Below, piece by piece: positions 3,030-59,319 of a stretch of DNA of 64,000 nt. Made by a program: the position numbers and the translations under genes. Every line of letters starts with the position of its first letter. Position 1 is the stretch's first letter. Under the pieces are notes generated by a model, which was not told the origin of the DNA, did no database searches, and worked only from the letters and a program-made list of their open reading frames with translations. The DNA lies in the IMG/VR virus record IMGVR_UViG_3300033486_000001, positions 1 through 64,000 of that record, one strand, 5' to 3'. This DNA comes from a virus (Duplodnaviria; Caudoviricetes).

Positions 3030-3035
3030 AATCTT
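3030..3035 (+). promoter_or_regulatory. Candidate phage late promoter AATCTT, 6 nt upstream of ATG 3042
   Basis: Same motif and spacing at 56140, 58327 and 33321-33326 (-, AATCTA); also present at 6990. Confidence 0.6.
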
Positions 3036-6989: not shown

Positions 6990-6995
6990 AATCTT
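6990..6995 (+). promoter_or_regulatory. Candidate late promoter AATCTT upstream of the tail fibre gene (leader with SD CAGGAG)
   Basis: Motif lies in the 38-bp gap before ATG 7025. Confidence 0.5.
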
Positions 6996-26802: not shown

Positions 26803-27057
26803 TCACTTACGGGTGCTTCTGACCTTCTTCGTGTCACCGCCGTAGTACTTCTTCGTGGCTTCCATAAAGTTGGCGTATGCGACCCTACACATCCGATTGG
26901 CATCCATGGTCAAGGGGTCGTCTGCGACACTTCGGGTGGCATCCGGGACTATCGATATCTCTCGATAATACAGCACCATAGCTCGATGATACTCTGCATA
27001 AGCGTTGAAGTACTCTTGTGCAGCTTGGTGGTATTCGACTTCAGAGCGATGGCTCAT
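26803..27057 (-). CDS. Hypothetical helical protein
   Basis: Start overlaps the stop of the upstream gene. Confidence 0.6.
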   Translation of the reverse strand: MSHRSEVEYHQAAQEYFNAYAEYHRAMVLYYREISIVPDATRSVADDPLTMDANRMCRVAYANFMEATKKYYGGDTKKVRSTRK

Positions 27058-27281
27058 CGACTCACCTTCAGTTGACGGCGCAACTTCTCGATCACTCGAG
27101 CTTCCAACGTGTTGTACTCCTCTTCCGTCATCATCAGCGACCTTGCAGCAACACTCGCAGGGACGCCGTCAGGAAACCGTGCCATGAGCTTGTTCAGCGA
27201 GTAGTCATAGCGTCGGTTGGAGATGAAGTCGGGGTCGTCCTGCAACTTCTTCTTAAAATCTTCAATTTGTGGGTCGGTCAT
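27054..27281 (-). CDS. Stand-alone sigma70 region-4.2-like HTH protein (75 aa)
   Basis: PASVAARSLMMTEEEYNTLEARVIEKLR aligns by eye to the consensus TLEEIGRELGVSRERVRQIEARALRKLR; ATGA-coupled start. Confidence 0.55.
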   Translation of the reverse strand: MTDPQIEDFKKKLQDDPDFISNRRYDYSLNKLMARFPDGVPASVAARSLMMTEEEYNTLEARVIEKLRRQLKVSR

Positions 27282-28342
27282 AGTGGCTTCCAAAGGGGAA
27301 TGATTTTGTCGAACTCTTTTGATTTGTCTGCATCAACACCAACATAAAGCCGTCTGTGATCGCCAAACTGGTGTCCGTCGACGCTCTCCCAGAGTTGCTG
27401 ACTACAGTGCGAGGCGAAGTAACCAAGAGACTGAGAGTACTGGCCTCCAGGAAGCATCGCTCCGTTCGTAATTACTGTGGAATCCCCTACGTCTACGTCA
27501 CAGGAAATGTGGACATGTCCGCCACAAAACTGAGTCACGTCGGCGTTGTCGGGGTGCGCAGTACGAAACCTTCCAATTTGAGCCTCCAAGGCTCCGGTGC
27601 GGAGCAGCTTGCCTGGATTGCCGAAATTGAAGATCGCATCGCCGTGTGTATAGAGCGACTTTTGTCCGAATTGAGAGCAAATGTAGAACGGACGGATGTG
27701 AGTTTCAACCCGGACATTGGGGACGGCGCGGAAGGCGTAATACAGCGACCGATAAATGCGGTATTCATGGGAGTCGTATTTATCTTGTAGGGCGCGGTCT
27801 GGGTGGCGAGCGACGTCGCGTCCATGATTCCCTACAGCCGTATACACCACAACTTGGCGAAATTCCGTGGCGGCAAATTCCAGGGCATGGACTAGATGGT
27901 GCAAGGCTCGGTCGAACTGTACCGTTACGTTGGCTGAAGACTGGGGGTCATGAATGTTGCCTTCAATAACATCGCCCAAGATGTGTACCGCCAAAGATGT
28001 GGCCTTGCGATGCTGTCGCTTGTAGTCCACCACTTGAGCGACAATAGCCGCCAATCGACGAGATTCTTCGATTGGGCCGTACGGATAACGCACTAATCGG
28101 CCATCCAACTCGGCCCCAAAGTGCATGTCCGACAACATCAAGTTCAGCCAGCGCTCCGTCCTAGCAGTCTTCTTGCCCTTATAGGTCGGAATCCAATTGC
28201 GCTGGGCAAACCGCCTGGAAATAACCTCCAGGCGATTAGCCATACACTCGTTCTTCGCCAAGCTCAGTGCCGCACTTTTGTCTTTCTTGAATTCCGCCTT
28301 TTTACGCAACTCATCGATAAACGCATGTACGGCCGACGCCAT
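27278..28342 (-). CDS. Calcineurin-like metallophosphoesterase
   Basis: SDMHFG, LGDVIEG, VGNHG, THGD, GHVH. Confidence 0.85.
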   Translation of the reverse strand: MASAVHAFIDELRKKAEFKKDKSAALSLAKNECMANRLEVISRRFAQRNWIPTYKGKKTARTERWLNLMLSDMHFGAELDGRLVRYPYGPIEESRRLAAIVAQVVDYKRQHRKATSLAVHILGDVIEGNIHDPQSSANVTVQFDRALHHLVHALEFAATEFRQVVVYTAVGNHGRDVARHPDRALQDKYDSHEYRIYRSLYYAFRAVPNVRVETHIRPFYICSQFGQKSLYTHGDAIFNFGNPGKLLRTGALEAQIGRFRTAHPDNADVTQFCGGHVHISCDVDVGDSTVITNGAMLPGGQYSQSLGYFASHCSQQLWESVDGHQFGDHRRLYVGVDADKSKEFDKIIPLWKPL

Positions 28343-28851
28343 TAGCTCTTCACCGCGGCGGGAGCGTTGCAATACACCGCCTCAACGCGAAGCTTGTCCT
28401 TGTTCTGGAGCTCCATCTCGAAGCCCGCCGACTGTCCGAGCAACCCGGCGAGAAGAGTCTGCTCCATCTGCTTGGCCGGCAATGTAACGGGCTGCTGCGT
28501 CTTGAGTTGACCGTCCGCGCTGAACTGGTTGACAACCAACAGACTCTCGACCGTGATGGCGGGGTCGACAACCAGCGAGCCCTCGGCCAGAGCCGCCTCA
28601 ATGGCCGCCTTCTGAGCCTTGGCGCGCTCCTCTTGCTGACGAGCCTGATGCGCGCCAATGGCCTGCTGAATGGCCTCCATACCGACCGTCTCGACGATGG
28701 CCGCAAGGAGCTGGTCGATCTGGTCGACGCGCTGAGTGAGCCCCTGCTCCTCCTTCGTTCCGAACAGGCTCGTCTCGATACGAGTGAGACGGGTCATTGC
28801 ATCTGCAGCGCGCTTCGCATTTACTCGATTATCATTGCTAGGAATTACCAT
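28342..28851 (-). CDS. Putative GreA/GreB-like protein lacking the acidic catalytic tip
   Basis: ARQQE-x9-IEAALAEGSLVVD and LAGLLGQ...LRVEAVY match GreA AREQQ-x9-IEAKLSNAQVID and ARGLIGK...EVIKVEY. Confidence 0.45.
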   Translation of the reverse strand: MVIPSNDNRVNAKRAADAMTRLTRIETSLFGTKEEQGLTQRVDQIDQLLAAIVETVGMEAIQQAIGAHQARQQEERAKAQKAAIEAALAEGSLVVDPAITVESLLVVNQFSADGQLKTQQPVTLPAKQMEQTLLAGLLGQSAGFEMELQNKDKLRVEAVYCNAPAAVKS

Positions 28852-28875: not shown

Positions 28876-29727
28876 CTACGCGTTCTTTACCGCTGCATCC
28901 ATCATTCGTGAGCTTGCTTCAGCCATTCTCGACGCCGTCATCTGAGAGGTCATTTCGATTTGACGAATTGATGTCGGGAATGGAATCGGCTGAATTGAAC
29001 CCGTCGGTCGAGCCTGCTGGGTGAGGTCGACTACAACTTCCTTCTCGACTGTCTTGCCAGTGGACTGATCGACCATTGGCGCCATGACGGTTTTGGTAAC
29101 TCGCTTGATTCCACCTACTTGTTCCGTCTTCACGGGCGTCGGTGTTGGAGTTGGGGTCGGTGCCGGGGTTTGTGGGGCTGGCGTTGATGCCGACTGGACA
29201 ACAGACTTGGCGGACACCTTACGTAGCGCCGGCTTGGCTGGAACGTTCGCCTTCTTGAGTGTAGGGGCTACGGGCTCTGGAGTCGGCTCGGCTAGCGAGG
29301 GCTTCTTGGTGACCTTAGCCGCAATCGCCTTCAACGCACCAAACACCGCCGGGGCTGCCAGAGCCTTAAGTGCGGTAATTTCGGCCGGAGTAAACATGCC
29401 GTCAGTGTCAGTGTTTTCGACTCCAACAAGCTTAGACATGCGAGTTCTGACAAAATCTCGGATCTCTTTGTCGACTACAGCCGCCGCGGGGCCAGTGGAG
29501 TCGCTGAAGAAGGAGTCCATAGACAACACCAACCGGTAATACTGAGCGAGTTCAAGGCGAAATTCCACTTCCGCCATGGCTTGCTCATCGGTAGTTTCTG
29601 TTGTGTCAACTGCCGTCGGCTCGCTACGAGAAACTACGCGGACGTTCGGTCGCGGTCGGGGTGGAGCGGCCGATACATCCGGCGCGCTGTCGTTGTCGAG
29701 GTCTTCTAGATCAAAATCGATTGACAA
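28876..29727 (-). CDS. Hypothetical protein with a Pro/Thr-rich linker
   Basis: SD AGGAG plus TTG; 283 aa. Confidence 0.7.
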   Translation of the reverse strand: MSIDFDLEDLDNDSAPDVSAAPPRPRPNVRVVSRSEPTAVDTTETTDEQAMAEVEFRLELAQYYRLVLSMDSFFSDSTGPAAAVVDKEIRDFVRTRMSKLVGVENTDTDGMFTPAEITALKALAAPAVFGALKAIAAKVTKKPSLAEPTPEPVAPTLKKANVPAKPALRKVSAKSVVQSASTPAPQTPAPTPTPTPTPVKTEQVGGIKRVTKTVMAPMVDQSTGKTVEKEVVVDLTQQARPTGSIQPIPFPTSIRQIEMTSQMTASRMAEASSRMMDAAVKNA

Positions 29728-32598: not shown

Positions 32599-32608
32599 AG
32601 TATACCAC
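32599..32608 (-). promoter_or_regulatory. Extended -10 GTGGTATACT upstream of RNR
   Basis: Repeated motif in an intergenic gap. Confidence 0.6.
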
Positions 32609-32618
32609 CGGACGTTCG

Positions 32619-33314
32619 CTAGTTTTTGGTCTTTTTGGGTTTGTCAAACACGTCTTTGTTCGTCAGAACGTGGCAGCCCAGCAAAAACGCTTGCACTTGG
32701 CAATGTGCATCGGCGATGTCGTCATCGCCCTTCTTAAAATCGGCGTCCCAAGTGAGATTACAATACGCCACGGCGATGCTCTTTTTGTCGATTTTGCCGT
32801 GGATGCACTTCTTGCGAAGCACTACCATGTGCGCATCCAGCTTAGCTTTGGCTTCTTTCTTGGAAGCGGCATCGCGTGCGGACTTCAATTCAGCCTTGAG
32901 GCGTTTTTGCTCCAAAAGGAGCAACTTGGATTGCTTCCGAGTCGTAGCCACGGACAAATCCAAAGTCTTGCGCCAATCCGACGTGTTGATGTAGTGGATT
33001 TTGACGGGGAATTTCAAGAGATTCTTGACTACGGTGTAGTGAATCATGTCGAGAATCTTCTGCGAGTGCCGACTGCCAAACCTGCTGGAGGTTTTGTTGA
33101 TTTCCTCGATGACTACGTCGGTTACATCGGGGTTTTTGGTGAGCAGCTCGGCTACTTGCTCACCGACATCGTCGGCGACCATAATGAAATTATGTGGATA
33201 TTCCGCGACATCCCACCCGATTCGCTTCGCAATGAGACCAGAAGACGTAGGGCGTCCATCAGTGAAGATGGCCCATCCAGTGGAGGTGCTGAGGTCGAGT
33301 CCAAGGATTGACAT
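32619..33314 (-). CDS. RuvC-like Holliday junction resolvase
   Basis: ILGLDLSTSTGWAIF, VVIEE, INTSDWRK, DDDIADA; start reassigned to 33314. Confidence 0.8.
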   Translation of the reverse strand: MSILGLDLSTSTGWAIFTDGRPTSSGLIAKRIGWDVAEYPHNFIMVADDVGEQVAELLTKNPDVTDVVIEEINKTSSRFGSRHSQKILDMIHYTVVKNLLKFPVKIHYINTSDWRKTLDLSVATTRKQSKLLLLEQKRLKAELKSARDAASKKEAKAKLDAHMVVLRKKCIHGKIDKKSIAVAYCNLTWDADFKKGDDDIADAHCQVQAFLLGCHVLTNKDVFDKPKKTKN

Positions 33315-33319
33315 GAGTG

Positions 33320-33898
33320 TTAGATTCCGGCGGACAGACCGGACAGAATTTTTCGGAGGTGAGCTATAAGAATCTCTTTGAGGCTCGCTACGACTAGTTC
33401 GGCTGTGGAATATTGCTCGAAGTACATGTTGAGTATCTGGATGTTGTTGACTGCGGCGATACGTAAGGCCTGCCCAGTGCCACCAGTCGGCCTGCCACCG
33501 GCCGTCCAACAAACCACCGCCTGAACCGGAGATTGTAGGTCCAGACCGAGAACCTGTGCGCTGTTGCGCGCCATAAGCTTCCGAGCGCCGTCCTTTAGAC
33601 GGTCCCACGTCGGATGGAACTGTCTAGCGTGCGCCATTAGTTCCGTCCAATTGTTGGGGACCACAAGTTGGCCTCCCAGTCTATTGGCCTGCTCTTCAAA
33701 GGAAGACCACGGGAGGTATGCCGTACAACATTGCGCGGCTCCACACTCGAAAGCTTGGTCTGCACCCGGAGCGTGTCCGGAACGGATTTGTATTTTGTTG
33801 GCCGCGCACCACTGGCCGATTTTTACCATCTCGGCCAAGATAGAGCCGGGTGTTTCTCTACTGCCGATGCCGGCGATTGCGAGTTGAGAGTCAAGCAT
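33320..33898 (-). CDS. SLOG-superfamily (DprA/YspA-like) protein
   Basis: IAGIGSRETP, RSGHAPGADQAFE, GGTGQALRIA. Confidence 0.75.
   Translation of the reverse strand: MLDSQLAIAGIGSRETPGSILAEMVKIGQWCAANKIQIRSGHAPGADQAFECGAAQCCTAYLPWSSFEEQANRLGGQLVVPNNWTELMAHARQFHPTWDRLKDGARKLMARNSAQVLGLDLQSPVQAVVCWTAGGRPTGGTGQALRIAAVNNIQILNMYFEQYSTAELVVASLKEILIAHLRKILSGLSAGI
33321..33326 (-). promoter_or_regulatory. Candidate late promoter AATCTA, 6 nt before the RuvC-like ATG
   Basis: Same spacing as AATCTT-N6-ATG at three + strand late genes. Confidence 0.5.
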
Positions 33899-37420: not shown

Positions 37421-39166
37421 TTAAACGTGATCGTCCGCGGGATTGTCGTTGACCGTCCGCATGTAATTCGCGCTGTCGCGAGCTTCGGCGTGATCCACTT
37501 CAGTATCACGGACGAATACGCAAACGCCACCGCAAGTTCCGAGAAGTGACGCAATGGAGATAGAATTACGAATCGCCTCCAACACTGCCGGAACAGAGTC
37601 AAGAAGACCTTCCTTAAACGCGTCGACGTACTCTCCTTCCAGGATGTCGTAGACGGTCGACTTACTCCCGCGCATTGCAGAAATCAAACCTTCGACCTCG
37701 TCGATGTGGTATCCGGCGTTCATGTAAAGGCGGTTGATCGGCTCCTGCAACGATGGGACCAAAACTTCACGCAACATCGCATCGTGGGTCAAAAGCGACT
37801 GCAATTGCAGCAACATCCACCCGCCAGCCGGAAGTGCCCCGTGCTCGATGGCGCCACGGACCGCGCAAATCGCATCGTCGACGCGGTCGCGCTTCTCGCG
37901 GAGCTCTCCACCACTCGCGCCAACGACAGTGAGGCGAGCAACGCCGCCGCTCACCTTCCCCAGGCGCTCGGAAACGATGTGCTGGTCCAACTTACTCAGT
38001 CCGCCGATTTCGAGCTGCTTCGAGAGCTGATCGACACGCTCCAACACGCGAAGCTCGTCGGCGAACCCAATGATCGTAGAACGGAACCGAGCCGCTTCGA
38101 ACGCTGGCGTGTGCCCGAGGTCCTCGACTTGACCCTCCGACAATGGCTTGTTGATTGGGTCAAAGATGACACCACCGGTCACCGCCGCGAGGTCGGCTAA
38201 GAAATCGTACTGCCCCGACTGCATCTGGCTGAGAGGCGCGGTAAGCGGGTAGACGTTTAGCGAACCGGGTTCACGGAAGTTGACGGACAGATGCCCAAGT
38301 ACGCTCTCTGAAACCCCGCACGACACGAACACGACATTCTGAGAAATTTGTCCGGCCTGTGCAGCTTGGATGATTTGATCGAACAACTTGAGCGCGTCGT
38401 AGATGTCGTTGAGCTTCCCGTGGTATAAGATGTACGACGGCTTCTCGAAGGAACAGAGTTGTCGAGAGACGTCGTTGATGAAGTTTTGGTAGAACTTACC
38501 GCACGCGTCTTCGTACCCGGTGGAAATTTGATAGCCATCGATCTTGTCGACGCGATATCCCGCCGGACCACTCTCTTCGACCACTGTGATGTTACCTTTG
38601 TCGCCTGTTAGGTCGAAACATTCAAGTACGGCGTCCGCTAGCGCCTTGTCGCCGTTAGCCGATACCTTGGCGACGGCATGAAGAAGCTTACGCCCTTGCT
38701 TCGACGACAGAGACACCTTTTTGGCGGACTTGTGGATGGCCGGCTCAATCGTATTCTTGAATGCCGCTTCAAGAGTGCGAACGACTCGCTGAGGAGAAAC
38801 CTTCGGGTTTCGCTCGCAATACTCCTGCGTGTAACGAACAATAGCCTCCGCAAGAATTGCGCTCGAAGTCGTTCCGTCGCCGGCAGAAGCTGCAGTTCGG
38901 ACGCTGCAGTCTCGAGCGGATTCCATAATGACTTGCTTGACGGAATCCTGGAATCCCATGTTGTTGAAGGCGGTTACCCCGTCCTTGCTCAAAAATGGAG
39001 GTAAAAGCTCCTCCTGCCGCTCAATTATAACAGACAGCCCACCAGGGCCAAGGGTGCTACCAACGAGGTCGGAGCACGTCTTCATGGTCTCACGGATGAC
39101 TCGCTGCAGTTCCGGACCACGAGTCAGCATTTTTTTGGGGGCAGATTTGGCTTTTTGGTGTTGCAT
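37421..39166 (-). CDS. groEL: GroEL-like chaperonin
   Basis: STLGPGG, SKDGVT, AGDGTTS, SANGD, ERLGKVSGGVA, KRDRVDDA, PAGG, LLDSVPA. Confidence 0.92.
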   Translation of the reverse strand: MQHQKAKSAPKKMLTRGPELQRVIRETMKTCSDLVGSTLGPGGLSVIIERQEELLPPFLSKDGVTAFNNMGFQDSVKQVIMESARDCSVRTAASAGDGTTSSAILAEAIVRYTQEYCERNPKVSPQRVVRTLEAAFKNTIEPAIHKSAKKVSLSSKQGRKLLHAVAKVSANGDKALADAVLECFDLTGDKGNITVVEESGPAGYRVDKIDGYQISTGYEDACGKFYQNFINDVSRQLCSFEKPSYILYHGKLNDIYDALKLFDQIIQAAQAGQISQNVVFVSCGVSESVLGHLSVNFREPGSLNVYPLTAPLSQMQSGQYDFLADLAAVTGGVIFDPINKPLSEGQVEDLGHTPAFEAARFRSTIIGFADELRVLERVDQLSKQLEIGGLSKLDQHIVSERLGKVSGGVARLTVVGASGGELREKRDRVDDAICAVRGAIEHGALPAGGWMLLQLQSLLTHDAMLREVLVPSLQEPINRLYMNAGYHIDEVEGLISAMRGSKSTVYDILEGEYVDAFKEGLLDSVPAVLEAIRNSISIASLLGTCGGVCVFVRDTEVDHAEARDSANYMRTVNDNPADDHV

Positions 39167-39191: not shown

Positions 39192-39201
39192 AGTATACCA
39201 C
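39192..39201 (-). promoter_or_regulatory. Extended -10 GTGGTATACT upstream of GroEL
   Basis: Repeated motif; leader carries SD CAGGAG. Confidence 0.6.
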
Positions 39202-42849: not shown

Positions 42850-43086
42850 TTAACCCCTTGTCCGATCAATCAACTCGAGCAACTCTTCCTTGAGCATATC
42901 TACAGATACTCTGTCGTCACGACGATCAATTTCGAGCGAGTCAATTCGTTCAGTCAGAAGTCGGACGTGCGCCTTCGCTTCGTCAAGTTCAAGACGCAAC
43001 ATCTCGACTTCCGCCTCCATGCCGGAGACTTCCTTAAACGGAGGTGGCGGGTATGGCATCAACCTCGGAGGTGAAAATCGCATCAC
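42850..43086 (-). CDS. Coiled-coil hypothetical protein
   Basis: Tiles with neighbours. Confidence 0.55.
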   Translation of the reverse strand: MMRFSPPRLMPYPPPPFKEVSGMEAEVEMLRLELDEAKAHVRLLTERIDSLEIDRRDDRVSVDMLKEELLELIDRTRG

Positions 43087-43538
43087 TTCGCCCCGATCGC
43101 GTCAGTGTAATTCCCGGATATGCTAGTCATACCATTGCCATCGACAAGAATCGCGGTAGGAACCAAGGTCATTCCACTGCCAGAAGTCTTGAGGGTCTGA
43201 CGACTAGGAACGTTCACATACAACTCCTCCACAAGCTGAATAAAATTCTTGGGGACCAGAATGAACGTCTTGTCGCCAATACTGTAGACGTCCTTGGCCC
43301 ACTGCTGGGTGTACAAATCTCCGCGCAACCACACCTTGACACCTGGAGCGTACTGCTCACAACCCTCTCCGGATGCAGGAAAGACCACTTCGAGTTGTTG
43401 CAGATCGATCTTGTTGGCGATTAGCACCATCCCTCCGACTACCTTCTTTTCGATGTGGCGGGCTGGGAATGGCGTACAAGCCACGAGGCCGTTGGTGGTA
43501 GAAATCGCAGACGTTTCATTTGTGGAACTGGTGGTCAT
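43083..43538 (-). CDS. GroES-like co-chaperonin
   Basis: Mobile-loop-like EKKVVGGMVLI; PGVKVWL...IGDKTFILVPKNFIQLVE resembles GroES VGDIVIF...IDNEEVLIMSESDILAIVE. Confidence 0.6.
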   Translation of the reverse strand: MTTSSTNETSAISTTNGLVACTPFPARHIEKKVVGGMVLIANKIDLQQLEVVFPASGEGCEQYAPGVKVWLRGDLYTQQWAKDVYSIGDKTFILVPKNFIQLVEELYVNVPSRQTLKTSGSGMTLVPTAILVDGNGMTSISGNYTDAIGAK

Positions 43539-44596
43539 GATAGCGTTATCCCTTTCAAGCGCAGCATCTTTTGCTCTACCACGGACAAACTCTTGAGTCC
43601 AGCATGAATTGTGGCCAGAGCCTGCGTCCGCTCGACAATCACGTCTGGACGGTGCTCTTCGTCATCCATGTAACACTCGAGAGTGGTATCGCCAGTCTCT
43701 TGGTCAACCGCGCAATCACCTGAAACGTGGCTGGCTGCAGCAAGGAGGCCTTGGATTTCGGGGCCGGTCACATGGTATTTTTCCGGGATGTTTTCGTTGA
43801 CGGCAGCTACAACCAGGTCGATATCGGCGTTCTTGTCGAGAAACCTGGAGGCCTTATGGGCACGATACACGCGTCGTGCGTCTACAGGCCATAGGTGCAA
43901 AAGTGTGGAATTGTAGGCCTCTATCCTATCTCCGCACATACGCCCGAGGGCGACGCTTCTGAATACTTTGTACGCGGCCAGTTCTTCCTCATTAGTCATG
44001 TTGTCGTGGGTATTGGGGTTAAATTTGTCAATCGCAACCTGTAACCCTATTGTATGGGTCTGTATTAGATCCAGGAACGACATGTGAGATCGAGGGGTTT
44101 GGTTCCAGAATGTGCGACAATAGCTGATCGCCAAAGGCAGATTCATGGTCATGATTTCGACGCGCATTTTTTCGATTTCTCGGATGGTGGCGCGAATTTC
44201 AGGAGTCAATGTAGGTCCGGCGGAGTTCAACACCCACTTGGCAAATTGGTAATTCAGCTTGTATGGGTGCAGCCCAGCGCCATTCCGGTCCTTGAAGAGC
44301 TGCGAAATCTCAGCAGAAAAACGCTCTTGGCGCTCGCGGAAGAAGGGCCGACTCGAAAGAATATTCCGCTTCTCGGTGCAGATATATGTGATGAATGAGT
44401 CGTACACACTTGCACCGTAAACCTCCCACAATTGATCTTGAAGTTTCCGTTCAGAGGCGATAAGGGACTTCAACTGCCGACGCTGAGTGTGTAGGCGGTC
44501 GACTTCATCGGTTTTTGGGATTCGACCGATCGCTGCCGTCAAACTCTTGGCAAAGCTCTTAAAATAGACGTCGCTTGTGTCATAGCCACCAATCAT
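43535..44596 (-). CDS. Phage sigma70-family factor ending in region 4.1 (no 4.2 HTH)
   Basis: Region 2: MNLPLAISYC...DLIQTHTIGLQVAIDKFNP; region 3.2-like HVSGD; ends LKSLSVVEQKMLRLKGITLS*. Confidence 0.8.
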   Translation of the reverse strand: MIGGYDTSDVYFKSFAKSLTAAIGRIPKTDEVDRLHTQRRQLKSLIASERKLQDQLWEVYGASVYDSFITYICTEKRNILSSRPFFRERQERFSAEISQLFKDRNGAGLHPYKLNYQFAKWVLNSAGPTLTPEIRATIREIEKMRVEIMTMNLPLAISYCRTFWNQTPRSHMSFLDLIQTHTIGLQVAIDKFNPNTHDNMTNEEELAAYKVFRSVALGRMCGDRIEAYNSTLLHLWPVDARRVYRAHKASRFLDKNADIDLVVAAVNENIPEKYHVTGPEIQGLLAAASHVSGDCAVDQETGDTTLECYMDDEEHRPDVIVERTQALATIHAGLKSLSVVEQKMLRLKGITLS

Positions 44597-44630: not shown

Positions 44631-45572
44631 CTAGTATACCACAAGCCATTCGAGAATCTTCTTGATGGTTCCAGCGCGATCTGCTTCGTACTCCGCCTCT
44701 GGGATTCTCAAGAGTTGAATGCCAGCTTCGGCGCATTGCTCGTTTTTACGTCGGTCTTTATCTTCGCTGCCCGGCAGTGAGTGCCAATATACCCCGTCGT
44801 ACTCAATGGCTTTTTTGAGAGATGGGATGTAGATGTCGAGTTCAAGACGTTTGTAGCGTAAAACGCTTCTGACTCCACTGACCGCATCCGTATATTTTTC
44901 TTTGATGTCACTGAAGATGGCTAACTCGGCCTTGGAGTGACGATGGGTGCAACGGGAACAACCTTGCGGCTTACCCGGCTTAGTCCTGTTATTCGGAGAC
45001 GAAAACCATACGTGCCCTTTCGAACAAATCCACTTTCGCTTTTCTTTGGCTCCATAGGGGGTGTCGCAGAACCTCTCTTCGTTGTCTGGATGCCACTCTT
45101 TCTCTAGATGGGGAGCTTTTGTCGCCAACGAATTCGCGGCGGAGACTCGATGTCCGCTACATTCCGGACAACCACTACGGCTCTTTCCAGCTCTAGTACA
45201 GGGGACTGCCCACCATACGTGCCCTTTAGAGCACACCCACTCTCGCTTGGGCCACGAAGCTCTGGCAAACACGCCATCAAACGGCTCTGTATTGTTCGGT
45301 CCCCATTCCGACCTAAGCCAAGGGGCTTTTGTCGCCAAAGAGCGTTCGATTGGTACGATCTTAAAACACTCGCTACATCCAGTGCCTCTGTCACGTCTAA
45401 TCCGTTTACGTACAGTTGCCTCCCATTTATGACCTAGAGGGCATATCCACAAACACTTCTCTTTGTAGACGAGTGTCACATCATCAAAACTGACAGTATT
45501 CTCCGGGCTCCACTCGGATCTCAAGTGGGGTGCCTTGATAGCCAACGAATTTGGTTTGCGGCCCGCCATCAC
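44631..45572 (-). CDS. Zinc-ribbon-repeat endonuclease (Vsr/EDxHD-like), putative homing endonuclease, paralog 1
   Basis: Three W.C..GH.W...C..C repeats plus ELDIYIPSLKKAIEYDGVYWH. Confidence 0.8.
   Translation of the reverse strand: MMAGRKPNSLAIKAPHLRSEWSPENTVSFDDVTLVYKEKCLWICPLGHKWEATVRKRIRRDRGTGCSECFKIVPIERSLATKAPWLRSEWGPNNTEPFDGVFARASWPKREWVCSKGHVWWAVPCTRAGKSRSGCPECSGHRVSAANSLATKAPHLEKEWHPDNEERFCDTPYGAKEKRKWICSKGHVWFSSPNNRTKPGKPQGCSRCTHRHSKAELAIFSDIKEKYTDAVSGVRSVLRYKRLELDIYIPSLKKAIEYDGVYWHSLPGSEDKDRRKNEQCAEAGIQLLRIPEAEYEADRAGTIKKILEWLVVY
44633..44642 (-). promoter_or_regulatory. Extended -10 GTGGTATACT upstream of the sigma gene
   Basis: Encoded by the last codons of the upstream endonuclease gene. 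Confidence 0.6.
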
Positions 45573-46814: not shown

Positions 46815-47951
46815 TCAAGGGGTTTGTAGCCACTCCAAGATTTTCTTGATGGTGCCATCCCGGTCGGCTTCGTATTCGGCTTCTGGGATTCTGAGGAGCT
46901 GGATTCCGACTTCGATACACTGTTCATTTTTATGGAGATCTGCACCCACTTTGTCGGGTAGCGAGTGCCAATACGTCCCGTCATACTCTATGGCTTTACG
47001 AAGTGATGGCACGTAAATATCGAGCTCTAACCTTGTAGAGCGGAGTAGTCTACGTGCCCCATTGATTGTGTCGGGATACCTCTCTAAAACCAATTCGTAT
47101 ATGTCGAGTTCGGCCTTGGAGTGCTGTTTAGTACAACTTGGGCAGTTGCAACCCCTAGCTCTAGTTTTGGGAGACGTCTCCCATTCGTGTCCATAACGAC
47201 AAATCCACCAAACTTCAATGTCCATTCCAATCGACAAAGACTCGAAGCTTCGTGTATTTTTGGTGGGGTGAAATTCAGATCTTAAGTTTGGGAACAGTAC
47301 GGACAATGAGTTATTGTCTGTGACCCTCTTGCCGGTGCAAAAAGGACAACCGAGGCCCATTAAAGAGCGATGGTCGATGCTGTCGCTCCACGAATGGCCT
47401 TGGTCGCAAATCCACCAAACTTTCTTATTGGATGCAAAAGCTACTTGACTTGGAGAGAGTTTGTTTTTGGCCGAGTCCCATTGTATTGCGAGTCGAGGGT
47501 TTTTGGAACTGAGGGAGTTAAGATCCGATACGCGATTATGAGAACAGTAAGGGCACCCCTGCCCCAATGTTCTAGACGCCACTCTAGACTGCCACTCGTG
47601 TCCTAGTCGGCACATCCACCACACTTTTCTTCCAGAAGAAACCGTTAAAGACTCAAGTGGTGTCGAATTTTTAGGGGAGTATTCTCCCCGGAACTGAGGA
47701 AAAAGAACAGACAGAGAGTTCTTGTCGGTTACAAGTCGACCAGAACAATAGGGGCATCCGGTCGGATTTTTTGCTTTTGCTCTATTCTTTACAACAGACT
47801 CCCATTCATGTCCTTTACTACAGATCCACCAAGCCAGCCTCTCCGAGCCGGCGCTATAGAAAGAGAAAGGGAGCACATTCTTAGTAGGATGAAATTCTGC
47901 ACTCAACCAAGGAGCGACAGAGGATAATGAGTTTGTAGGTAATTTGTCCAT
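46815..47951 (-). CDS. Zinc-ribbon-repeat endonuclease, paralog 2
   Basis: Four WW.C..GH.W...CPYC repeats plus ELDIYVPSLRKAIEYDGTYWH. Confidence 0.8.
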   Translation of the reverse strand: MDKLPTNSLSSVAPWLSAEFHPTKNVLPFSFYSAGSERLAWWICSKGHEWESVVKNRAKAKNPTGCPYCSGRLVTDKNSLSVLFPQFRGEYSPKNSTPLESLTVSSGRKVWWMCRLGHEWQSRVASRTLGQGCPYCSHNRVSDLNSLSSKNPRLAIQWDSAKNKLSPSQVAFASNKKVWWICDQGHSWSDSIDHRSLMGLGCPFCTGKRVTDNNSLSVLFPNLRSEFHPTKNTRSFESLSIGMDIEVWWICRYGHEWETSPKTRARGCNCPSCTKQHSKAELDIYELVLERYPDTINGARRLLRSTRLELDIYVPSLRKAIEYDGTYWHSLPDKVGADLHKNEQCIEVGIQLLRIPEAEYEADRDGTIKKILEWLQTP

Positions 47952-50326: not shown

Positions 50327-50632
50327 GTCTTGAGGTAAAATCCAACCTGCTCGTTTAGAGGAACTTCGCTTGCTCTGAGGCTCTGAATCGTGTATTGAGG
50401 TTTCACGCGAATTCTTGTTGTATTTGAGACTCGTCTTCGTTGTCTTAAGGAACTGTTCAATGTCTTACATCATCCCACAATACGTCGGTCGGCTGTCGTC
50501 GGCTTTTCTGCGACGACGAAGTCGGTCGGCTTTTGTCGTGCCGTTGCTTTTCGACGAAGTCGGCTCAATCGCCGTCTTGACCGTCTTGTTCTCTTGTAGA
50601 AGTCTCTTGCTCTTCTAGGTAGTAGTGGTTAC

Positions 50633-50868
50633 CTGGTGACGTAATGGTGTTGCGCTGGTGACTACACTTCGTGTGTTGGTGTTGCGCTGGTGACGTAATG
50701 GTGTTGCGCTGGTGACGTAATGGTGTTGCGCTGGTGACTACATGTGTTGGTGTTGCGCTGGTGACTACACCCCATAACCATGCGATATTGCTATACTTTT
50801 GATGTCTTGTTTCCCCGGTGACGTAATGGTGTTGCGCTGGTGACTACACCCCATAACCATGCGATATT
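50633..50868. repeat. Iteron-like direct repeat array (candidate replication origin)
   Basis: GGTGTTGCGCTGGTGAC at 50646, 50678, 50700, 50722, 50749, 50828; the last two copies share the extension TACACCCCATAACCATGCGATATT. Confidence 0.9.
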
Positions 50869-50899
50869 ACTGGGTGGTTGTTGTGGGCTGATTTTGAAG

Positions 50900-50928
50900 T
50901 TGAAGTTCACAGTTAGATGATGTACAAT
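50900..50928 (+). promoter_or_regulatory. sigma70-type promoter TTGAAG-N17-TACAAT
   Basis: Points toward gene 51077. Confidence 0.55.
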
Positions 50929-50945
50929 GGAATAGTTGTTTGGTG

Positions 50946-51023
50946 GAAGTTTGCCGCCCTACTGCTGGTGTCCTTGTTCTCTTGTCCGGGGACTCTGGGT
51001 TGAACTTTAGGGCGGCAAACTTC
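50946..51023. repeat. Perfect 16-bp inverted repeat in the leader of gene 51077
   Basis: GAAGTTTGCCGCCCTA (50946-50961) / TAGGGCGGCAAACTTC (51008-51023). Confidence 0.9.
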
Positions 51024-51076
51024 TGCTTAACAATCGCCCGCTTCAACCGGGTGTCATTTAAGACAAGGGATTTAAA

Positions 51077-51967
51077 ATGTGTGAATCATCCTACAAAAAA
51101 TTCGACGACACCCTAAAGGAACTTGCTCCCGACGAAGAAGGTAAGCGCACGTTTCTTCCGTTGTTGCCAGAGCATATGCGGCTACAAGCCAGCCTTTATC
51201 CGGCGATTGCCGACTTTCTATTTTCTGTTTATGGGCAAATCGATGTAGGACAAGAATGTTCTAAGCCGGCGCGCTGGCTTGACGGTTATAATGCTGGTCG
51301 CTATACCAAGAAGCTCACTGATATGGGGTTGCTGGTCAAGCGCAACAGGAGATTGGTACTCCCACCGACCGACACGATGAAGTGGGTCCGGGTTCCCATC
51401 CGGTGGTTCAGGGATCCTTTGTGTGGAGTATCAACAACAGACATGCAACTTTTGCTGCATGTCATGCATTACACCATACCTGAAGTTGAACTAAGTCAAG
51501 CCCAATACGCCAAATGCATTAACGTCTCGAGATCCGCTATTACTCGGCGTCCTTCTGAGTTTTGGAAGCGCTACCGCGGAAACACTTATGTCGATAGTAA
51601 CGGTTTCAAAAGCACTGCGACGCGATTTAATGTCATCGAGATGATGGTTGGGATGAACACAGACAAGTACGTGACTCCAACTCCGGAGAACCCTAAGGTA
51701 ACGACCTACTTCGAACCTGAGAGGATTCGAACATTACAGCCGAGACCCAAGGCTCCTCAGCCTCCAGCCGAGCCAGTGTGCGACTGGGCGAGGTTAGCTA
51801 AAGAGTCGGACGATCCTGGGATTCTGCGCGAGTGTCTTAGAACTGAAAAGTTCGAGGTTATATCTGATCTTTATATGATCAGGGGTAAGAAACCCAAAGA
51901 GATTTGTTGTGAAATTGAAGCGGCATTCGCAAAATTGAACCAGAGGGGTTATCGATATGGCACATAA
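51077..51967 (+). CDS. Putative replication initiator / wHTH DNA-binding protein
   Basis: YTKKLTDMGLL wHTH-like segment; WVRVP...STTDMQLLL...LSQAQYAKCINVSRSAITR HTH; adjacent to the repeat array. Confidence 0.55.
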   Translation: MCESSYKKFDDTLKELAPDEEGKRTFLPLLPEHMRLQASLYPAIADFLFSVYGQIDVGQECSKPARWLDGYNAGRYTKKLTDMGLLVKRNRRLVLPPTDTMKWVRVPIRWFRDPLCGVSTTDMQLLLHVMHYTIPEVELSQAQYAKCINVSRSAITRRPSEFWKRYRGNTYVDSNGFKSTATRFNVIEMMVGMNTDKYVTPTPENPKVTTYFEPERIRTLQPRPKAPQPPAEPVCDWARLAKESDDPGILRECLRTEKFEVISDLYMIRGKKPKEICCEIEAAFAKLNQRGYRYGT

Positions 51968-55020: not shown

Positions 55021-56148
55021 ATGGATCTCAAACCGAATTCATTGACTATTAAGGCGCCGCACTTGAGATCCGAGTGGAGTTCGGAGAATACCGTCAATTT
55101 TGACGATGTGTCGTATGGTTCACAAACCAAATACAAGTGGGTGTGCGTAAACGGACACAAATGGGAGGCGTCTCCTAACAGGAGAACTGACAAGGGGCGG
55201 CGAGGGTGTTCGCGGTGCCCTAGGAACTCTTTGGCTGAGAAAGCTTCGCAGATGGCTTGCGAGTGGCATTCAGACAATCCTAAGAGGTTCCATGAGGTGT
55301 CATTCGGGTCTGTCGTGAAGTACAAGTGGATATGCGTCAAATGCCAGCACATATGGGTCGCGTCCCCCAACAGCAGGACTCACCTCAAGAGACCAACCGG
55401 ATGTCCCGAGTGCTTTAAGAGAGTTACTGATGCTAACTCACTAGCGACGAAAGCACCCCACTTGAAGCTTGAGTGGCATTCGAGTAACTCCAAACAATTC
55501 CACGAAGTCCATTGTGGATCCAATGATTTGTACATGTGGATATGCCGACTTGGGCATACCTGGACCACGACACCGAACCATCGAACAAAGGTCGGCAGGA
55601 AAAGTGGATGTCCGGACTGCGCTCACAGACGTGTTTCAGAACTCAACTCCTTAGCGACAAAAGCTCCGTGGTTGGAAAAAGAGTGGCACTTTAGCAACAA
55701 AAAGAAGTTCCATGAGGTGGCGTACGCTTCACCCACTAAATACACGTGGATTTGCGCCAAAGGACATACCTGGGACGCACAGTGTGGTAGCCGGACACGC
55801 AAGAACTCTACTGGATGCCCAGAGTGTCATTGTTCGACTTCAAGGGCTGAGCAAGCCATTTTTTGTGTCGTTAAGGAAAAATATCAAGATGCCGTCAACA
55901 AAACACGTGGTTTGCTTCGCTCCAAAACACTCGAACTCGATATTTACATTCCATCGCTCAAGAAGGCGATTGAATACGATGGGACCTATTGGCACTCGTT
56001 CCCTGGAGCTATAGAGCGGGATGTCAGAAAAAATCAGCAGTGTATCGAGGTCGGAATTCAGCTCCTCAGAGTTTCCGATCAAGAGTATGAAGCGGATCGC
56101 GAAGGTACTGTCGCCAAGGTTCTTGCTTGGCTTGAGGGCAATCTTTGA
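55021..56148 (+). CDS. Zinc-ribbon-repeat endonuclease, paralog 3
   Basis: Four W.C..GH.W...C..C repeats plus ELDIYIPSLKKAIEYDGTYWH; SD AAGGAG. Confidence 0.8.
   Translation: MDLKPNSLTIKAPHLRSEWSSENTVNFDDVSYGSQTKYKWVCVNGHKWEASPNRRTDKGRRGCSRCPRNSLAEKASQMACEWHSDNPKRFHEVSFGSVVKYKWICVKCQHIWVASPNSRTHLKRPTGCPECFKRVTDANSLATKAPHLKLEWHSSNSKQFHEVHCGSNDLYMWICRLGHTWTTTPNHRTKVGRKSGCPDCAHRRVSELNSLATKAPWLEKEWHFSNKKKFHEVAYASPTKYTWICAKGHTWDAQCGSRTRKNSTGCPECHCSTSRAEQAIFCVVKEKYQDAVNKTRGLLRSKTLELDIYIPSLKKAIEYDGTYWHSFPGAIERDVRKNQQCIEVGIQLLRVSDQEYEADREGTVAKVLAWLEGNL
56140..56145 (+). promoter_or_regulatory. Candidate late promoter AATCTT, 6 nt before the TerL ATG
   Basis: Conserved motif and spacing. Confidence 0.6.
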
Positions 56149-56151
56149 TGC

Positions 56152-58038
56152 ATGCCCTATTCCGAACACGAAATGCGCCGCATGCTCTTTACGGTCTGTT
56201 CAACCAAAGAGCACTTGTCCAGGTGGGTGCAAACTTTTTTGGGGTTGGACTTCCCCAGTTCAATCGTATTGGAAGAGTCGAACAGCTCCCCTATGGACGC
56301 ACTGTGGTTGTTGTATAGCAAAGCTATCTCAAACGACGATGAGAATTTCGCTCGTTGTATGAGCTATGCAGCCCGCGGGTCATTTAAGACCCTCTCTGCG
56401 TCAGTTCTCGAAGTGGCCTTGGCTCTACATACACCCCGCAACATAGCCCATCTAGCTGCGACCACTGATCAATCGGGAAAGGCTCAGCAGTACGTGAGGG
56501 GGTTCTTCAGCAAGCCCTACCTTTGCGATTTCCGCCAAGGACAGAACATCAAGCGCATCGACATATGTCGATTTAGCAATGACCGAGGAATTCACCTCTC
56601 CGAAAAAGAGTGGCAAATCCTAGATGACTCGGAAAAGCGATTTTTCGAGCGACACGACAACTACATACAAATCATTACACTCACCCTACAAGGTGCGAAT
56701 AGTGCACACACAGAACTACTTGTAGTAGACGAAGTCGATACCGTGCCAGTGCAAAACCGTGGAGCCTACGAAGAGGCTAAGTCGATTCCTGACCCGCGCA
56801 ACGGCCTAAACCCTATCACTCTACTGACTTCGACCCGTAAGTTCTCATATGGACTTGTCCAGAAAGAGCTCGATGAGGCGGCCAAGACAGGGCTAAGGGC
56901 GTACCACTGGACCGCCGTGGATGTCGTACAAGCGTGTGAGCCTGAGCGACACCACCCGGAACTACCAAAGGTGCAGCTTTACGTCAATGACGCTGAGTTG
57001 ACCACCGTAAACGAAGAGGCTTACTCCAAATTCGATGCGGCGATGCAAGAGAAGTTCACTAAGCATGAAGGGTTCGGCGGTTGCGCGGCATGCTCGCTGT
57101 TTTCGGTATGTAAGTCTCGGCTAGCCACACATCAAGCCTCGAAATCCCCGTTGCTGAAGCCGATCCCGTGGCTGCGCAACCGCATGAAGGAGTTTTCCAC
57201 CTCGATGGCCCTGACGCAGCTTATGTGTCGTCAGCCAGATTCCACTGGTTTGATTTACCCAAAGCTTGACCGAGCCATCCACGTCAAGACTGCCTCGGAA
57301 ATCGCCCAGATGGTTACCGGGAGGACTTGTCCACCTGGGATGGACAAAGGCACGCTTTTGAGGATCTTGGTGGACCGCGGGTGTAAGTTTTACACGGGCA
57401 TGGACTTCGGCTTCACACACCCTTTTTCTTGTGTCACCATGGCCGTGTGGGGGCAAAACGCATTTGTTGTGGACTGTGTCTCCCGATCTGGACTGGAGTT
57501 GGATGACAAAGTAGCAGTATGCGAACACCTACGTGTACTGAATCCTACGATTCACGCCGACACCGAGGCCCCGGCGGATATTGAAACGTTCAAGCGACGC
57601 GGTTTTCAAATGCGCGGCGCCATCAAAGGTCGTGGTAGCGTCAAGTCCGGCATAGAAATCGTACGGATGAAGATGCAGCCAGCCCTCGGCTCCCCGACGT
57701 TGTTCTTTTTGAGCGGAGATCCGGACGTGGAGTTCGCATTCCAGCAGCTCAAAATGTACCACTTTATCACCGACGAAGCCGGCAACATCGCAGACGAGCC
57801 AGAAAAAGTCGACGATGACTCATGTGACGCGTTGCGTTACGGTATCGTAGGTACTTTCGCACCCAATCACAAAATCGGCCTACCGCAAAACCCGAACAAT
57901 CCAGCACCTTCGGAATACCAAGCCGCTCCGGGTCGCCCCCAGTGGATGAATGACCACATCGCCAAACTATTAGACGGTGGAGACCTTTCTTCATCGAACA
58001 AACCGGTCAAGAAGGGGAATTTTCACTTTCAGCAATAA
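56152..58038 (+). CDS. Terminase large subunit
   Basis: AARGSFKT, LVVDEVD, nuclease motifs GMDFGFTHP and DDDSCDALRY. Confidence 0.9.
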   Translation: MPYSEHEMRRMLFTVCSTKEHLSRWVQTFLGLDFPSSIVLEESNSSPMDALWLLYSKAISNDDENFARCMSYAARGSFKTLSASVLEVALALHTPRNIAHLAATTDQSGKAQQYVRGFFSKPYLCDFRQGQNIKRIDICRFSNDRGIHLSEKEWQILDDSEKRFFERHDNYIQIITLTLQGANSAHTELLVVDEVDTVPVQNRGAYEEAKSIPDPRNGLNPITLLTSTRKFSYGLVQKELDEAAKTGLRAYHWTAVDVVQACEPERHHPELPKVQLYVNDAELTTVNEEAYSKFDAAMQEKFTKHEGFGGCAACSLFSVCKSRLATHQASKSPLLKPIPWLRNRMKEFSTSMALTQLMCRQPDSTGLIYPKLDRAIHVKTASEIAQMVTGRTCPPGMDKGTLLRILVDRGCKFYTGMDFGFTHPFSCVTMAVWGQNAFVVDCVSRSGLELDDKVAVCEHLRVLNPTIHADTEAPADIETFKRRGFQMRGAIKGRGSVKSGIEIVRMKMQPALGSPTLFFLSGDPDVEFAFQQLKMYHFITDEAGNIADEPEKVDDDSCDALRYGIVGTFAPNHKIGLPQNPNNPAPSEYQAAPGRPQWMNDHIAKLLDGGDLSSSNKPVKKGNFHFQQ

Positions 58039-58296: not shown

Positions 58297-58326
58297 CTCC
58301 ATATGGTACAATGGTCGCTAGAACGG

Positions 58327-58332
58327 AATCTT
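58327..58332 (+). promoter_or_regulatory. Candidate late promoter AATCTT, 6 nt before ATG 58339 (TGGTACAAT also present at 58304-58312)
   Basis: Conserved motif and spacing. Confidence 0.55.
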
Positions 58333-58338
58333 GACCAT

Positions 58339-59319
58339 ATGGATGCATTCTTAAACACGACCTTTCAAATTCAGGCTTACGCCGACCGTCCGGCCAACTC
58401 CAATCCGCGTCTGCGTGCGGTTGATTGGCGCCGGGATCTCTCCGGCCAAGCCGTATCTAACCCCAAGTCTGAATCCGTACAGCTTGTAGCCGGGGAAACT
58501 CGTACGCTCTTCAATGGACTTCGTACGACGACCTTGGACGGCACCACGGCGTTTACGATGTCGCTGTCGACTCTCGAGTCCGGCCGCTACCGCTTCACCA
58601 AAGTCGCTGGAACTGACCCGAGTCTTCGCCCCAGCCGAGGGCTTACGCTCAATACAGTTGCTGTCACTGCCGTGGCGTTGGCCAACGGTTCGCTGACAAT
58701 GACTGTACCCGGACCAGCCGCTTTCACCGGTGTCGTGGCTGGTGACATCGTGTTTGTCCCCAACACCAATACCGGTGACGCCGCCAACGTTTTCTCGATC
58801 TCTAATAGCGGATATTGGGTTGTGATGGCGGTGCTGTCTCCGCAGTCCCTGAGTCTCACCCGCCTCCCCGGCGCTTCCTTCGAGGGTGTGAGCGAAGTCG
58901 TAACGTTGACGTCTAATGCGCAACTCCGAGCTTATTCTGCAGCCGGAGTGCAAGTCGATGACTCGGTGTCGATTTCGGCTGGATTCGCCACGGCCACGCA
59001 AAAGACATACGATGTAGTGGCCGTCACAGACACCTTCTTTGAAGTGCGCAGTTCACTCCCGCTCCCCCTTGAGTCGTCCGTCATCCCGACCGCGGTCGGC
59101 CTGGTGTTCTACTCCAGCGCGAAGAATTTCTTGTACGTTGAAGGCGACCAAGAGTTTGTAATCCGCCTCAACGGCTCTACGGACTCGACACAGCGAGTCT
59201 CACCGGTGTCGGCCGGAGAAATCCCCGGAGCATATTTCAAGAACGGTCCGACTTGGTCGCTGGCTGTAGTTAATATGTCTTCCACGTTGCTCAATTTGAT
59301 GGTAATCGGAGCCGAATGA
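58339..59319 (+). CDS. Virion structural protein
   Basis: Beta-rich Thr/Val/Ser composition; between TerL and portal; start reassigned to 58339. Confidence 0.6.
   Translation: MDAFLNTTFQIQAYADRPANSNPRLRAVDWRRDLSGQAVSNPKSESVQLVAGETRTLFNGLRTTTLDGTTAFTMSLSTLESGRYRFTKVAGTDPSLRPSRGLTLNTVAVTAVALANGSLTMTVPGPAAFTGVVAGDIVFVPNTNTGDAANVFSISNSGYWVVMAVLSPQSLSLTRLPGASFEGVSEVVTLTSNAQLRAYSAAGVQVDDSVSISAGFATATQKTYDVVAVTDTFFEVRSSLPLPLESSVIPTAVGLVFYSSAKNFLYVEGDQEFVIRLNGSTDSTQRVSPVSAGEIPGAYFKNGPTWSLAVVNMSSTLLNLMVIGAE

Follow-up and report, generated by a model that had tools for sequence, protein, structure and literature searches.

How can a bacteriophage sigma factor that has no reader of the -35 element still select promoters, and which promoters would it select? 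The question is raised by a gene at 43535-44596 of a 64,000-nucleotide (nt) stretch of viral DNA (Caudoviricetes; positions 1 to 64,000 of IMG/VR record IMGVR_UViG_3300033486_000001; hereafter the window). An initial annotation, made from the sequence alone, described the product as a sigma factor cut short before the -35 helix-turn-helix (HTH), with a rewired -10 recognition helix, took it for a -10-only sigma consistent with AATCTT promoters that lack a -35 element, and placed it at the core of a three-protein take-over kit. Our analyses suggest that the gene probably encodes a working sigma-70-family factor without a -35-reading HTH, which would serve, by way of AATCTT boxes, as the late-gene switch of phages resembling Myxococcus phage Mx1.

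The sigma-like open reading frame (ORF) was confirmed (Table 1), and regions 2.1-2.2, initially judged clear, were recognizable by several routes. Pfam Sigma70_r2 matched residues 150-197 (E 0.0015, 18.7 bits against a gathering cut-off of 24 bits), PHROG 351 ('RNA polymerase sigma factor') matched the protein at E 1e-4, and a profile of 118 orthologs matched RpoD and SigA chains in the PDB at E 1e-9. Domain mapping with hidden Markov models (HMMs), as first suggested, gave an alignment to RpoD and SigA running from region 1.2/2.1 through the second sigma4 helix, the 'L..rE.kvLrmr' helix of region 4. The AlphaFold2 (AF2) model of the protein has a predicted local distance difference test score (pLDDT) of 91 and retrieved sigma chains exclusively in Foldseek, primary and group 2 factors alike. 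A second-look structural alignment laid model residues 8-353 on residues 94-567 of Escherichia coli sigma70 (Z about 12), and domain 2 alone aligned with a Z of 11.8 and a root-mean-square deviation (rmsd) of 3.3 Å over 178 amino acids (aa). Residue 567 of sigma70 (M567) falls in the motif GIDM, five residues ahead of the -35-reading HTH.

Several elements of a primary sigma factor are thus retained and two are missing. Sigma3 and the region 3.2 linker are present, collinear in sequence and structure, with an acidic, low-confidence loop (residues 290-304) at the 3.2 position, and the first two sigma4 helices (residues 317-335 and 339-347) are kept; region 1.1 and the region 4.2 HTH are both missing. 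The core-binding motif of region 2.2, DL.Q...GL..A.DKF, is invariant or nearly so in the alignment of the 118 orthologs, so that binding to core RNA polymerase is expected, and the window's own subclade carries a 13-aa insertion between regions 2.2 and 2.3. Profiles and predicted structure together identify the product as a sigma-70-family protein composed of region 1.2, sigma2, sigma3, the 3.2 linker and half of sigma4. RpoD, SigA and RpoS are its best matches in sequence and fold: it stays collinear with them between region 1.2 and the second helix of sigma4 and shares their 2.1-2.2 motif. Unlike them, it has neither region 1.1 nor the 4.2 HTH, and the equivalents of sigma70 W433/W434, Q437, T440, H455 and E458 are replaced.

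The truncation is a property of the whole family. A word-based search returned 160 homologs, almost all of 337-372 aa, the largest of their contigs measuring about 176 kb; no homolog longer than 618 aa was found. Two long matches (P0101, 496 aa; P0116, 616 aa) proved to be intein-bearing orthologs with the same C-terminal end as the others. Among deposited phages the only match was Mx1, whose protein (WNM70309.1) is 30.5% identical to that of the window and annotated as a 'putative RNA polymerase sigma factor', and whose gene order (helicase, sigma, small ORF, SbcD-like) is the same. In each of the 118 aligned orthologs (337-372 aa) a tail of between 1 and 26 residues, most often 3, follows a conserved glycine; Mx1 shares this end point. 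In 69 IMG/VR loci the ORF ended 2-14 residues beyond a conserved 'LRLKG', closed by TGA in 30 cases, TAA in 23 and TAG in 16. Every genome examined that bears the sigma gene has a single copy of it.

This common end point, reached with three different stop codons in the 118 orthologs and 69 loci (no full-length form was found), bears out the initial view that the stop is not a frameshift; going by the ortholog comparison, the truncation is a family trait rather than a frameshift or a sequencing error. The claim of a sigma factor unable to read a -35 box likewise held, the region 4.2 HTH being absent from 118 of 118 orthologs. Two details needed revision. The ORF does end before the HTH, but not at the very start of region 4, as the first two sigma4 helices are kept; and the stop does overlap the next gene's start, but it is a TGA within an ATGA rather than a TAA. 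An ATGA stop/start overlap is common to many orthologs.

If the -35 reader is missing, is the -10 reader intact? The string quoted initially for regions 2.3-2.4, YKVFRSVALGRMCGDRI, is present at residues 209-225, and, as claimed, the WW dyad is lost: no aromatic residue stands at W433/W434 in either of two HMMER registers, the counterpart being V215/A216 in one and a three-residue deletion (of the TWW triplet) in the other. The registers agree from I435 onwards, placing G218, R219, G222 and D223 at sigma70 R436, Q437, T440 and R441, and F212 may stand for the aromatic Y430. Among the residues with which sigma70 melts and reads TATAAT (Y430, W433, W434, Q437 and T440), W433/W434, Q437 and T440 are therefore replaced; in region 3.0, D239 and R241 occupy the positions of H455 and E458. 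Conservation within the family reaches at least 90% at F212, R213, V215, G218, R219, G222 and I225. Both inteins interrupt helix 2.4 at an identical position, with ..IE.Y on one side and SET..HFYP on the other, a shared site that suggests a functionally critical position. Many alternative sigma factors also lack the WW pair. 'Rewired' is a fair description of this -10 recognition helix.

We then asked what such a helix might read. The initial annotation had proposed AATCTT promoters without a -35 element, and here raw abundance and placement gave different answers: the window holds 20 copies of AATCTT against 30.6 expected, so that the hexamer is not enriched as such, but its position relative to start codons is highly non-random. 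AATCTT stood exactly 6 nt before a start in 14 of 366 occurrences, compared with 15 of 6269 for the 59 composition-matched hexamers obtained by permuting its letters (odds ratio 16.6, p 7e-11); long ORFs are thus opened about 16 times more often. The arrangement AATCT(T/A)-N6-ATG occurs at 4 sites in the window and 10 in G001, a 79%-identical relative, opening ORFs of 82-1874 aa; for AATCTT-N6-ATG in G001, 8 sites were observed against 0.12 expected. At all 17 N6 sites the nucleotide just ahead of the ATG is a pyrimidine (-1), the arrangement that transcription starts usually show at -1/+1. Other copies of AATCT(T/A) lie 14-45 nt ahead of start codons with a Shine-Dalgarno (SD) sequence in between, a placement that is strongly enriched as well. 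In a matrix of 85 sites from five genomes, information was limited to a C before the box, the box itself and a pyrimidine/purine step 6-7 nt after it; no information, and thus no -35 signal, was found between -40 and -7 in this matrix, in agreement with the initial proposal.

The geometry of the N6 sites allows the box to be set against the canonical -10 element. With the A of ATG as +1, AATCTT spans -12 to -7, keeping A(-11) and T(-7) of TATAAT and differing from it at -12, -9 and -8, changes that fit the altered residues in helix 2.3-2.4 and region 3.0. The spacing also suggests two corrected starts in the window: a shorter ORF within 32619-33608 (minus strand), beginning at 33314 and encoding 231 aa, which fits the PHROG match to the resolvase beginning at residue 95 of the longer ORF; and a shorter ORF within 58303-59319 (plus strand), beginning at 58339 and encoding 326 aa.

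The box is not peculiar to the window. AATCT(T/A) is conserved in seven related genomes, and an unbiased, de novo scan for 6-mers in the 50 nt ahead of gene starts returned AATCTT/CAATCT as the top 6-mer in G001, G002 and G003. In G008 (37% guanine plus cytosine (GC)) and G009 (34% GC), whose sigma factors are about 33% identical to that of the window, the extended forms CCTAATCTTA and CTTAATCT came first after SD words. AATCT is thus the leading non-SD upstream motif in relatives across 34-60% GC. What precedes AATCTT depends on the lineage: the adjoining three nucleotides are (G/C)(G/C)C for the window clade and Mx1, CCT for G008 and CTT for G009, and this extension may co-vary with region 3.0 of the sigma factor.

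Annotated genes that follow the box are mostly virion or packaging genes. In the first 50 kb of Mx1 (OR576727) it stands ahead of ten plus-strand genes, including those for the portal (8615) and the tail sheath (39319) and one at 36563, and among the AATCTT targets of G003 just 2 of 10 proteins have a PHROG match, both to baseplate or virion proteins. Annotated targets are therefore the large terminase in the window, portal and sheath in Mx1 and baseplate in G003, the single exception being the resolvase of the window. Because the targets are virion and packaging genes, the system would be a late switch of Mx1-like phages. The box is constant over 34-60% GC, in presumably different hosts, whereas boxes of the host type vary; this contrast points to a reader encoded by the phage, and the only sigma-like gene in each genome is the one described here. 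This reasoning, although indirect, is the principal link between sigma factor and box, and from it we infer that the sigma factor would read the AATCTT box.

Combining these observations, we propose that the sigma factor is made along with the replication genes from TGGTATACT, an extended -10 promoter of the host type, and would bind host core RNA polymerase through its well-conserved region 2.2. Its 3.2 linker would thread towards the flap, where the two remaining sigma4 helices would sit, and the resulting enzyme would be directed to promoters consisting of a -10-like box alone, (G/C)(G/C)C-AATCTT, with initiation about 7 nt downstream. As many such promoters lie 6 nt before an ATG in the window phage and its nearest relative, they would yield leaderless late mRNAs. 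Several points weigh against this proposal. The Pfam region 2 score is sub-threshold, and there is no Pfam match to region 3 or 4 (Sigma70_r3); the residue equivalences in helix 2.3-2.4 hinge on which of the two HMMER registers is right; and the lists of sites include some false positives inside coding sequence. At leadered sites a purine is found 7 nt after the box in 52 of 68 cases, but the next three positions score 39-48 of 68, making this preference weaker evidence, as it is partly shared by its neighbours and may reflect SD-rich leaders. Finally, the sigma-to-box link rests on co-occurrence and conservation, and another phage factor could read AATCTT.

The most durable alternative is compatible with this proposal and adds a subunit to it. 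A 79-aa stand-alone HTH protein encoded at 27054, previously suggested as a partner of the sigma factor, might pack onto the two orphan sigma4 helices and rebuild the flap-binding module, playing a role like that of phage T4 gp33, with an acidic 'recognition' helix that would not read DNA. The gene is present as one copy in 10 of 10 sigma-bearing genomes, including Mx1 and the most divergent ones. Homologs of the protein numbered 2 in the word-based search and 406 cluster representatives in an exhaustive HMMER search. Its AF2 model is confident (pLDDT 90.7) and ends in an HTH, and the C-terminal 40 or so residues superimpose on the sigma4 HTHs of SigL, sigma28, SigW, SigK, SigH and SigD with an rmsd of 2.2-2.9 Å (Z 2.4-2.8). 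The would-be DNA-reading helix begins TEEEY.., compared with the basic TRERIRQ of sigma70. However, all structural matches are weak (Z no higher than 3.8), with SigD region 4 giving the best Foldseek rows at E 1.2; the best PDB profile match is the LuxR-type HTH of NarL (E 0.03), and neither Pfam nor PHROGs gave a match. The protein is, moreover, already a complete three-helix HTH and so not simply the missing piece.

Co-folding of the 79-aa protein with the full sigma factor gave weak support. The median score was 0.56 (runs of 0.56, 0.56 and 0.57) against 0.00 for the best control, rated 'weak support' by the tool, with at least 59% of contacts agreeing between runs and a partner pLDDT of at least 74. 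Of 80 solved complexes 58 attain the mark applied, as do 2 of 110 mismatched pairs, counts that are approximate here given the custom alignments used; passes at or below 0.60 comprise just 7 of the 80 solved complexes and both of the passing mismatches. The weak pass could also stem from intact sigma4 domains that the model has memorized. Nor is the genetic association specific, because the 79-aa gene is a core gene beside that for the alpha subunit of DNA polymerase III (Pol III); the two are immediate neighbours in Mx1 and the other relatives examined, and an 84-aa ORF separates them in the window. Between the sigma and 79-aa genes there are 16 kb and many other genes in the window; in Mx1, where the ORF for the 79-aa protein is at 157476-157664, the distance is about 14 kb. 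Co-transcription is not obvious. A precedent for splitting sigma functions over two polypeptides is Bacillus subtilis SigO-RsoA, a two-subunit sigma factor whose region 2 functions come from the small subunit and whose genes are co-regulated neighbours, whereas the candidate partner here resembles region 4 and is encoded 16 kb away. Co-occurrence, local HTH likeness and the complex score thus lend the partner claim slight backing, and we regard a two-part sigma as a tentative idea that is on balance unlikely. Somewhat less likely still, in our estimate, is the fuller version, a natural 'half sigma4' system in which the 79-aa protein docks on the two helices to give a flap-tip clamp unable to touch DNA, and the resulting two-polypeptide sigma drives a -35-less, largely leaderless C-AATCTT late regulon in a clade of roughly 140-180-kb phages.

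The third proposed kit member, 28342-28851, found no support. Considered as a Gre factor, it had no Pfam GreA or GreB match at E values up to 1, and the Atlas gave unnamed viral clusters alone (0.77). By tblastn the gene was found in G001 (89% identity), G003 gave a weak match (E 1e-5, 32% identity) and G002 gave none. We do not count it as part of the sigma system.

Could the sigma factor instead read the extended -10 box found ahead of its own gene, leaving AATCTT to another factor or to a modified host holoenzyme? TGGTATACT occurs three times in the window against 0.07 expected, each time upstream of a minus-strand gene, namely those for ribonucleotide reductase (RNR), the GroEL-like protein and the sigma factor. 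The three copies are identical over 11 nt (GTGGTATACTA), all are intergenic and most lack a -35 box, which would suit a factor that has sigma3 but no region 4.2. E. coli sigma70 without region 4.2 reportedly still forms holoenzyme and initiates at extended -10 promoters (Kumar et al. 1993); that truncation, however, is laboratory-made and reads TGnTATAAT, whereas the window family is a natural, conserved truncation with a different box. Against this alternative, GTGGTATACTA matches the ordinary bacterial TGnTATAAT consensus, while the sigma70 residues that read TATAAT and TG are among those replaced; the sigma gene would need another promoter to start; and the motif that is constant across 34-60% GC is AATCTT, not TATACT. 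Similar TGnTATA(A/C/T)T boxes precede the sigma gene in some relatives but are absent from about half of the 13-kb loci. TGGTATACT is therefore an ordinary host-type extended -10 promoter, varying or missing in relatives as such a promoter would, and we consider it improbable that the phage sigma factor is its reader. A TTGACA-N16-TATACT promoter lies ahead of 28876-29727.

Less probable still is that the protein only mimics a sigma factor, occupying core RNA polymerase so that host transcription is shut off while initiating nothing itself. Strong conservation of core-binding region 2.2, together with the missing aromatic melting residues of region 2.3 and the missing -35 reader, is what such a decoy might show. 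A pure decoy, however, would have no need of its DNA-facing surfaces, and helix 2.3-2.4 and region 1.2 are near-invariant in more than 100 orthologs that are 35-48% identical overall; the inteins in helix 2.4 are typical of essential functional sites, and a conserved -10-like box with the right geometry before late genes needs a reader. We judge this mimicry very improbable. Almost certainly wrong is the reading in which a sequencing error, pseudogene formation or recoding of the TGA accounts for the early stop and region 4.2 belongs to the real product. Although the stop is a TGA overlapping the next gene's start codon (final codons GGG ATA ACG CTA TCA TGA), the ortholog comparison refutes it: the in-frame continuation comprises 31 non-HTH codons and then a stop, orthologs use all three stop codons at the same place, no longer homolog was found and the overlapping downstream frame is a conserved Cpn10-like gene that directly follows the sigma gene in 58 of 77 loci. 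Read-through of the TGA was rejected for the first two of these reasons.

Returning to a -10-only late sigma factor as the probable reading, the functionally closest system is that of phage T4. There, gp55, a sigma-family protein without a -35 reader, directs transcription from late promoters that consist of a -10-like box, TATAAATA, alone and lie before virion genes, and gp33 occupies the flap-tip helix that sigma region 4 would otherwise hold (PMC7892883, PMC2988020). The likeness to gp55, its co-activator gp33 and the sliding clamp gp45 extends from the absence of a -35 reader and the -10-only box before virion genes to the neighbourhood, as the window sigma gene adjoins SbcD/SbcC-like (gp47/gp46-like) genes. 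A similar order, with gp55 near gp47/gp46, is found in T4. The differences are equally plain. T4 gp55 is short (185 aa) and built around region 2 only, whereas in the window family region 1.2, sigma3, the 3.2 linker and half of sigma4 are retained as well; the boxes differ (AATCTT as against TATAAATA); and many target promoters of the window phage, unlike those of T4, would give leaderless mRNAs. No gp55 chain was among the listed matches of the PDB profile search, Foldseek or the structural second look, where primary and group 2 sigma factors filled the lists, although the two may be distantly related. Pfam and PHROG scans of some 40 window proteins revealed no sliding clamp or gp33-like family. 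Phage sigma factors that work without -35 contact are, to our knowledge, known essentially from gp55. The window family would represent a second, independent solution to the -35-less phage sigma, with a longer architecture.

The sigma-factor label of the family is already public. In the literature searched on Mx1 and on truncated phage sigma factors we found no description of a conserved truncation, an AATCTT box or the leaderless geometry. About three quarters of the coding sequences of Mx1 are without homology to characterized proteins (PMC10720576). A rule combining (G/C)(G/C)C-AATCTT with a start 7 nt downstream could serve late-gene annotation and start-codon correction in poorly annotated genomes such as these. 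Conserved in more than 150 environmental phages as well as in the cultivable Mx1, the family offers a natural test of the roles of the N-terminal half of sigma4 and of the 3.2 linker, and it leads one to expect leaderless late mRNAs from phages of a Gram-negative system. Box and sigma factor could also serve as an orthogonal expression pair.

Table 1. Coordinates of the sigma gene, its neighbours and the candidate promoter elements in the window.
Feature	Position	Strand	Basis or context
Sigma-70-family gene, 353 aa	43535..44596	minus	ATG-started ORF; HMM matches, AF2 model, Foldseek
ATGA overlap of the sigma TGA stop and the next gene's ATG	43535..43538	minus	Read from the sequence
Overlapping downstream gene, 151 aa, probable Cpn10/GroES-like co-chaperonin	43083..43538	minus	Cpn20 profile, Atlas
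TGGTATACT, extended -10-type (TGnTATAAT-like) box, 36 nt upstream of the sigma start	44633..44641	minus	Overlaps the stop codon of the upstream HNH gene
11-nt box GTGGTATACTA, identical before the RNR, GroEL-like and sigma genes	32599-32607, 39192-39200, 44633-44641	minus	Extended -10 type
79-aa stand-alone HTH protein with acidic 'recognition' helix, candidate sigma partner	27054..27293	minus	Co-occurrence, AF2 model
GroEL-like chaperonin gene	37421-39166	minus	PHROG 5725, E 2e-74; 4 kb from the 151-aa gene
Candidate promoter of a leaderless late transcript: AATCTT, 6 nt ahead of the ATG of a virion-block gene (1169 aa)	3030..3035	plus	Orthologous AATCTT-N6-GTG in G001
CCC-AATCTT, 29 nt ahead of the ATG of a gene for 878 aa, SD between	6990..6995	plus	Same box and spacing in G001 at 19370
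AATCTA box 6 nt before ATG 33314 of the RuvC-like resolvase	33321..33326	minus	Conserved in G001
AATCTT, 6 nt ahead of the ATG of the gene for the large terminase (56152-58038)	56140..56145	plus	AATCTA-N6-ATG before the G001 ortholog
AATCTT box 6 nt before ATG 58339 of a 326-aa ORF, head/packaging block	58327..58332	plus	Identical box and spacing in G001

Among the neighbours of the sigma gene, the overlapping 151-aa gene was considered as a source of the missing region 4 and rejected, since its product is a beta-rich, Cpn10-like protein. A profile match to Cpn20 (E 0.0046) and nearest Atlas clusters in which 14-19% of members carry PF00166 indicate that it is probably a Cpn10/GroES-like co-chaperonin; with the GroEL-like protein, it would form a phage chaperonin pair. 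Three paralogous genes for DUF4379 zinc-ribbon/HNH-type endonucleases, at 44631-45572 (minus), 46815-47951 (minus) and 55021-56148 (plus), flank the sigma, helicase and terminase genes in the manner of homing endonucleases. A ClpP-family protease gene (15171-15725, minus; Pfam CLP_protease, E 8e-30) lies in the replication block, away from the head genes, and a 600-bp non-coding gap at 50460-51077 marks the point at which the minus-strand replication block and the plus-strand virion block diverge.

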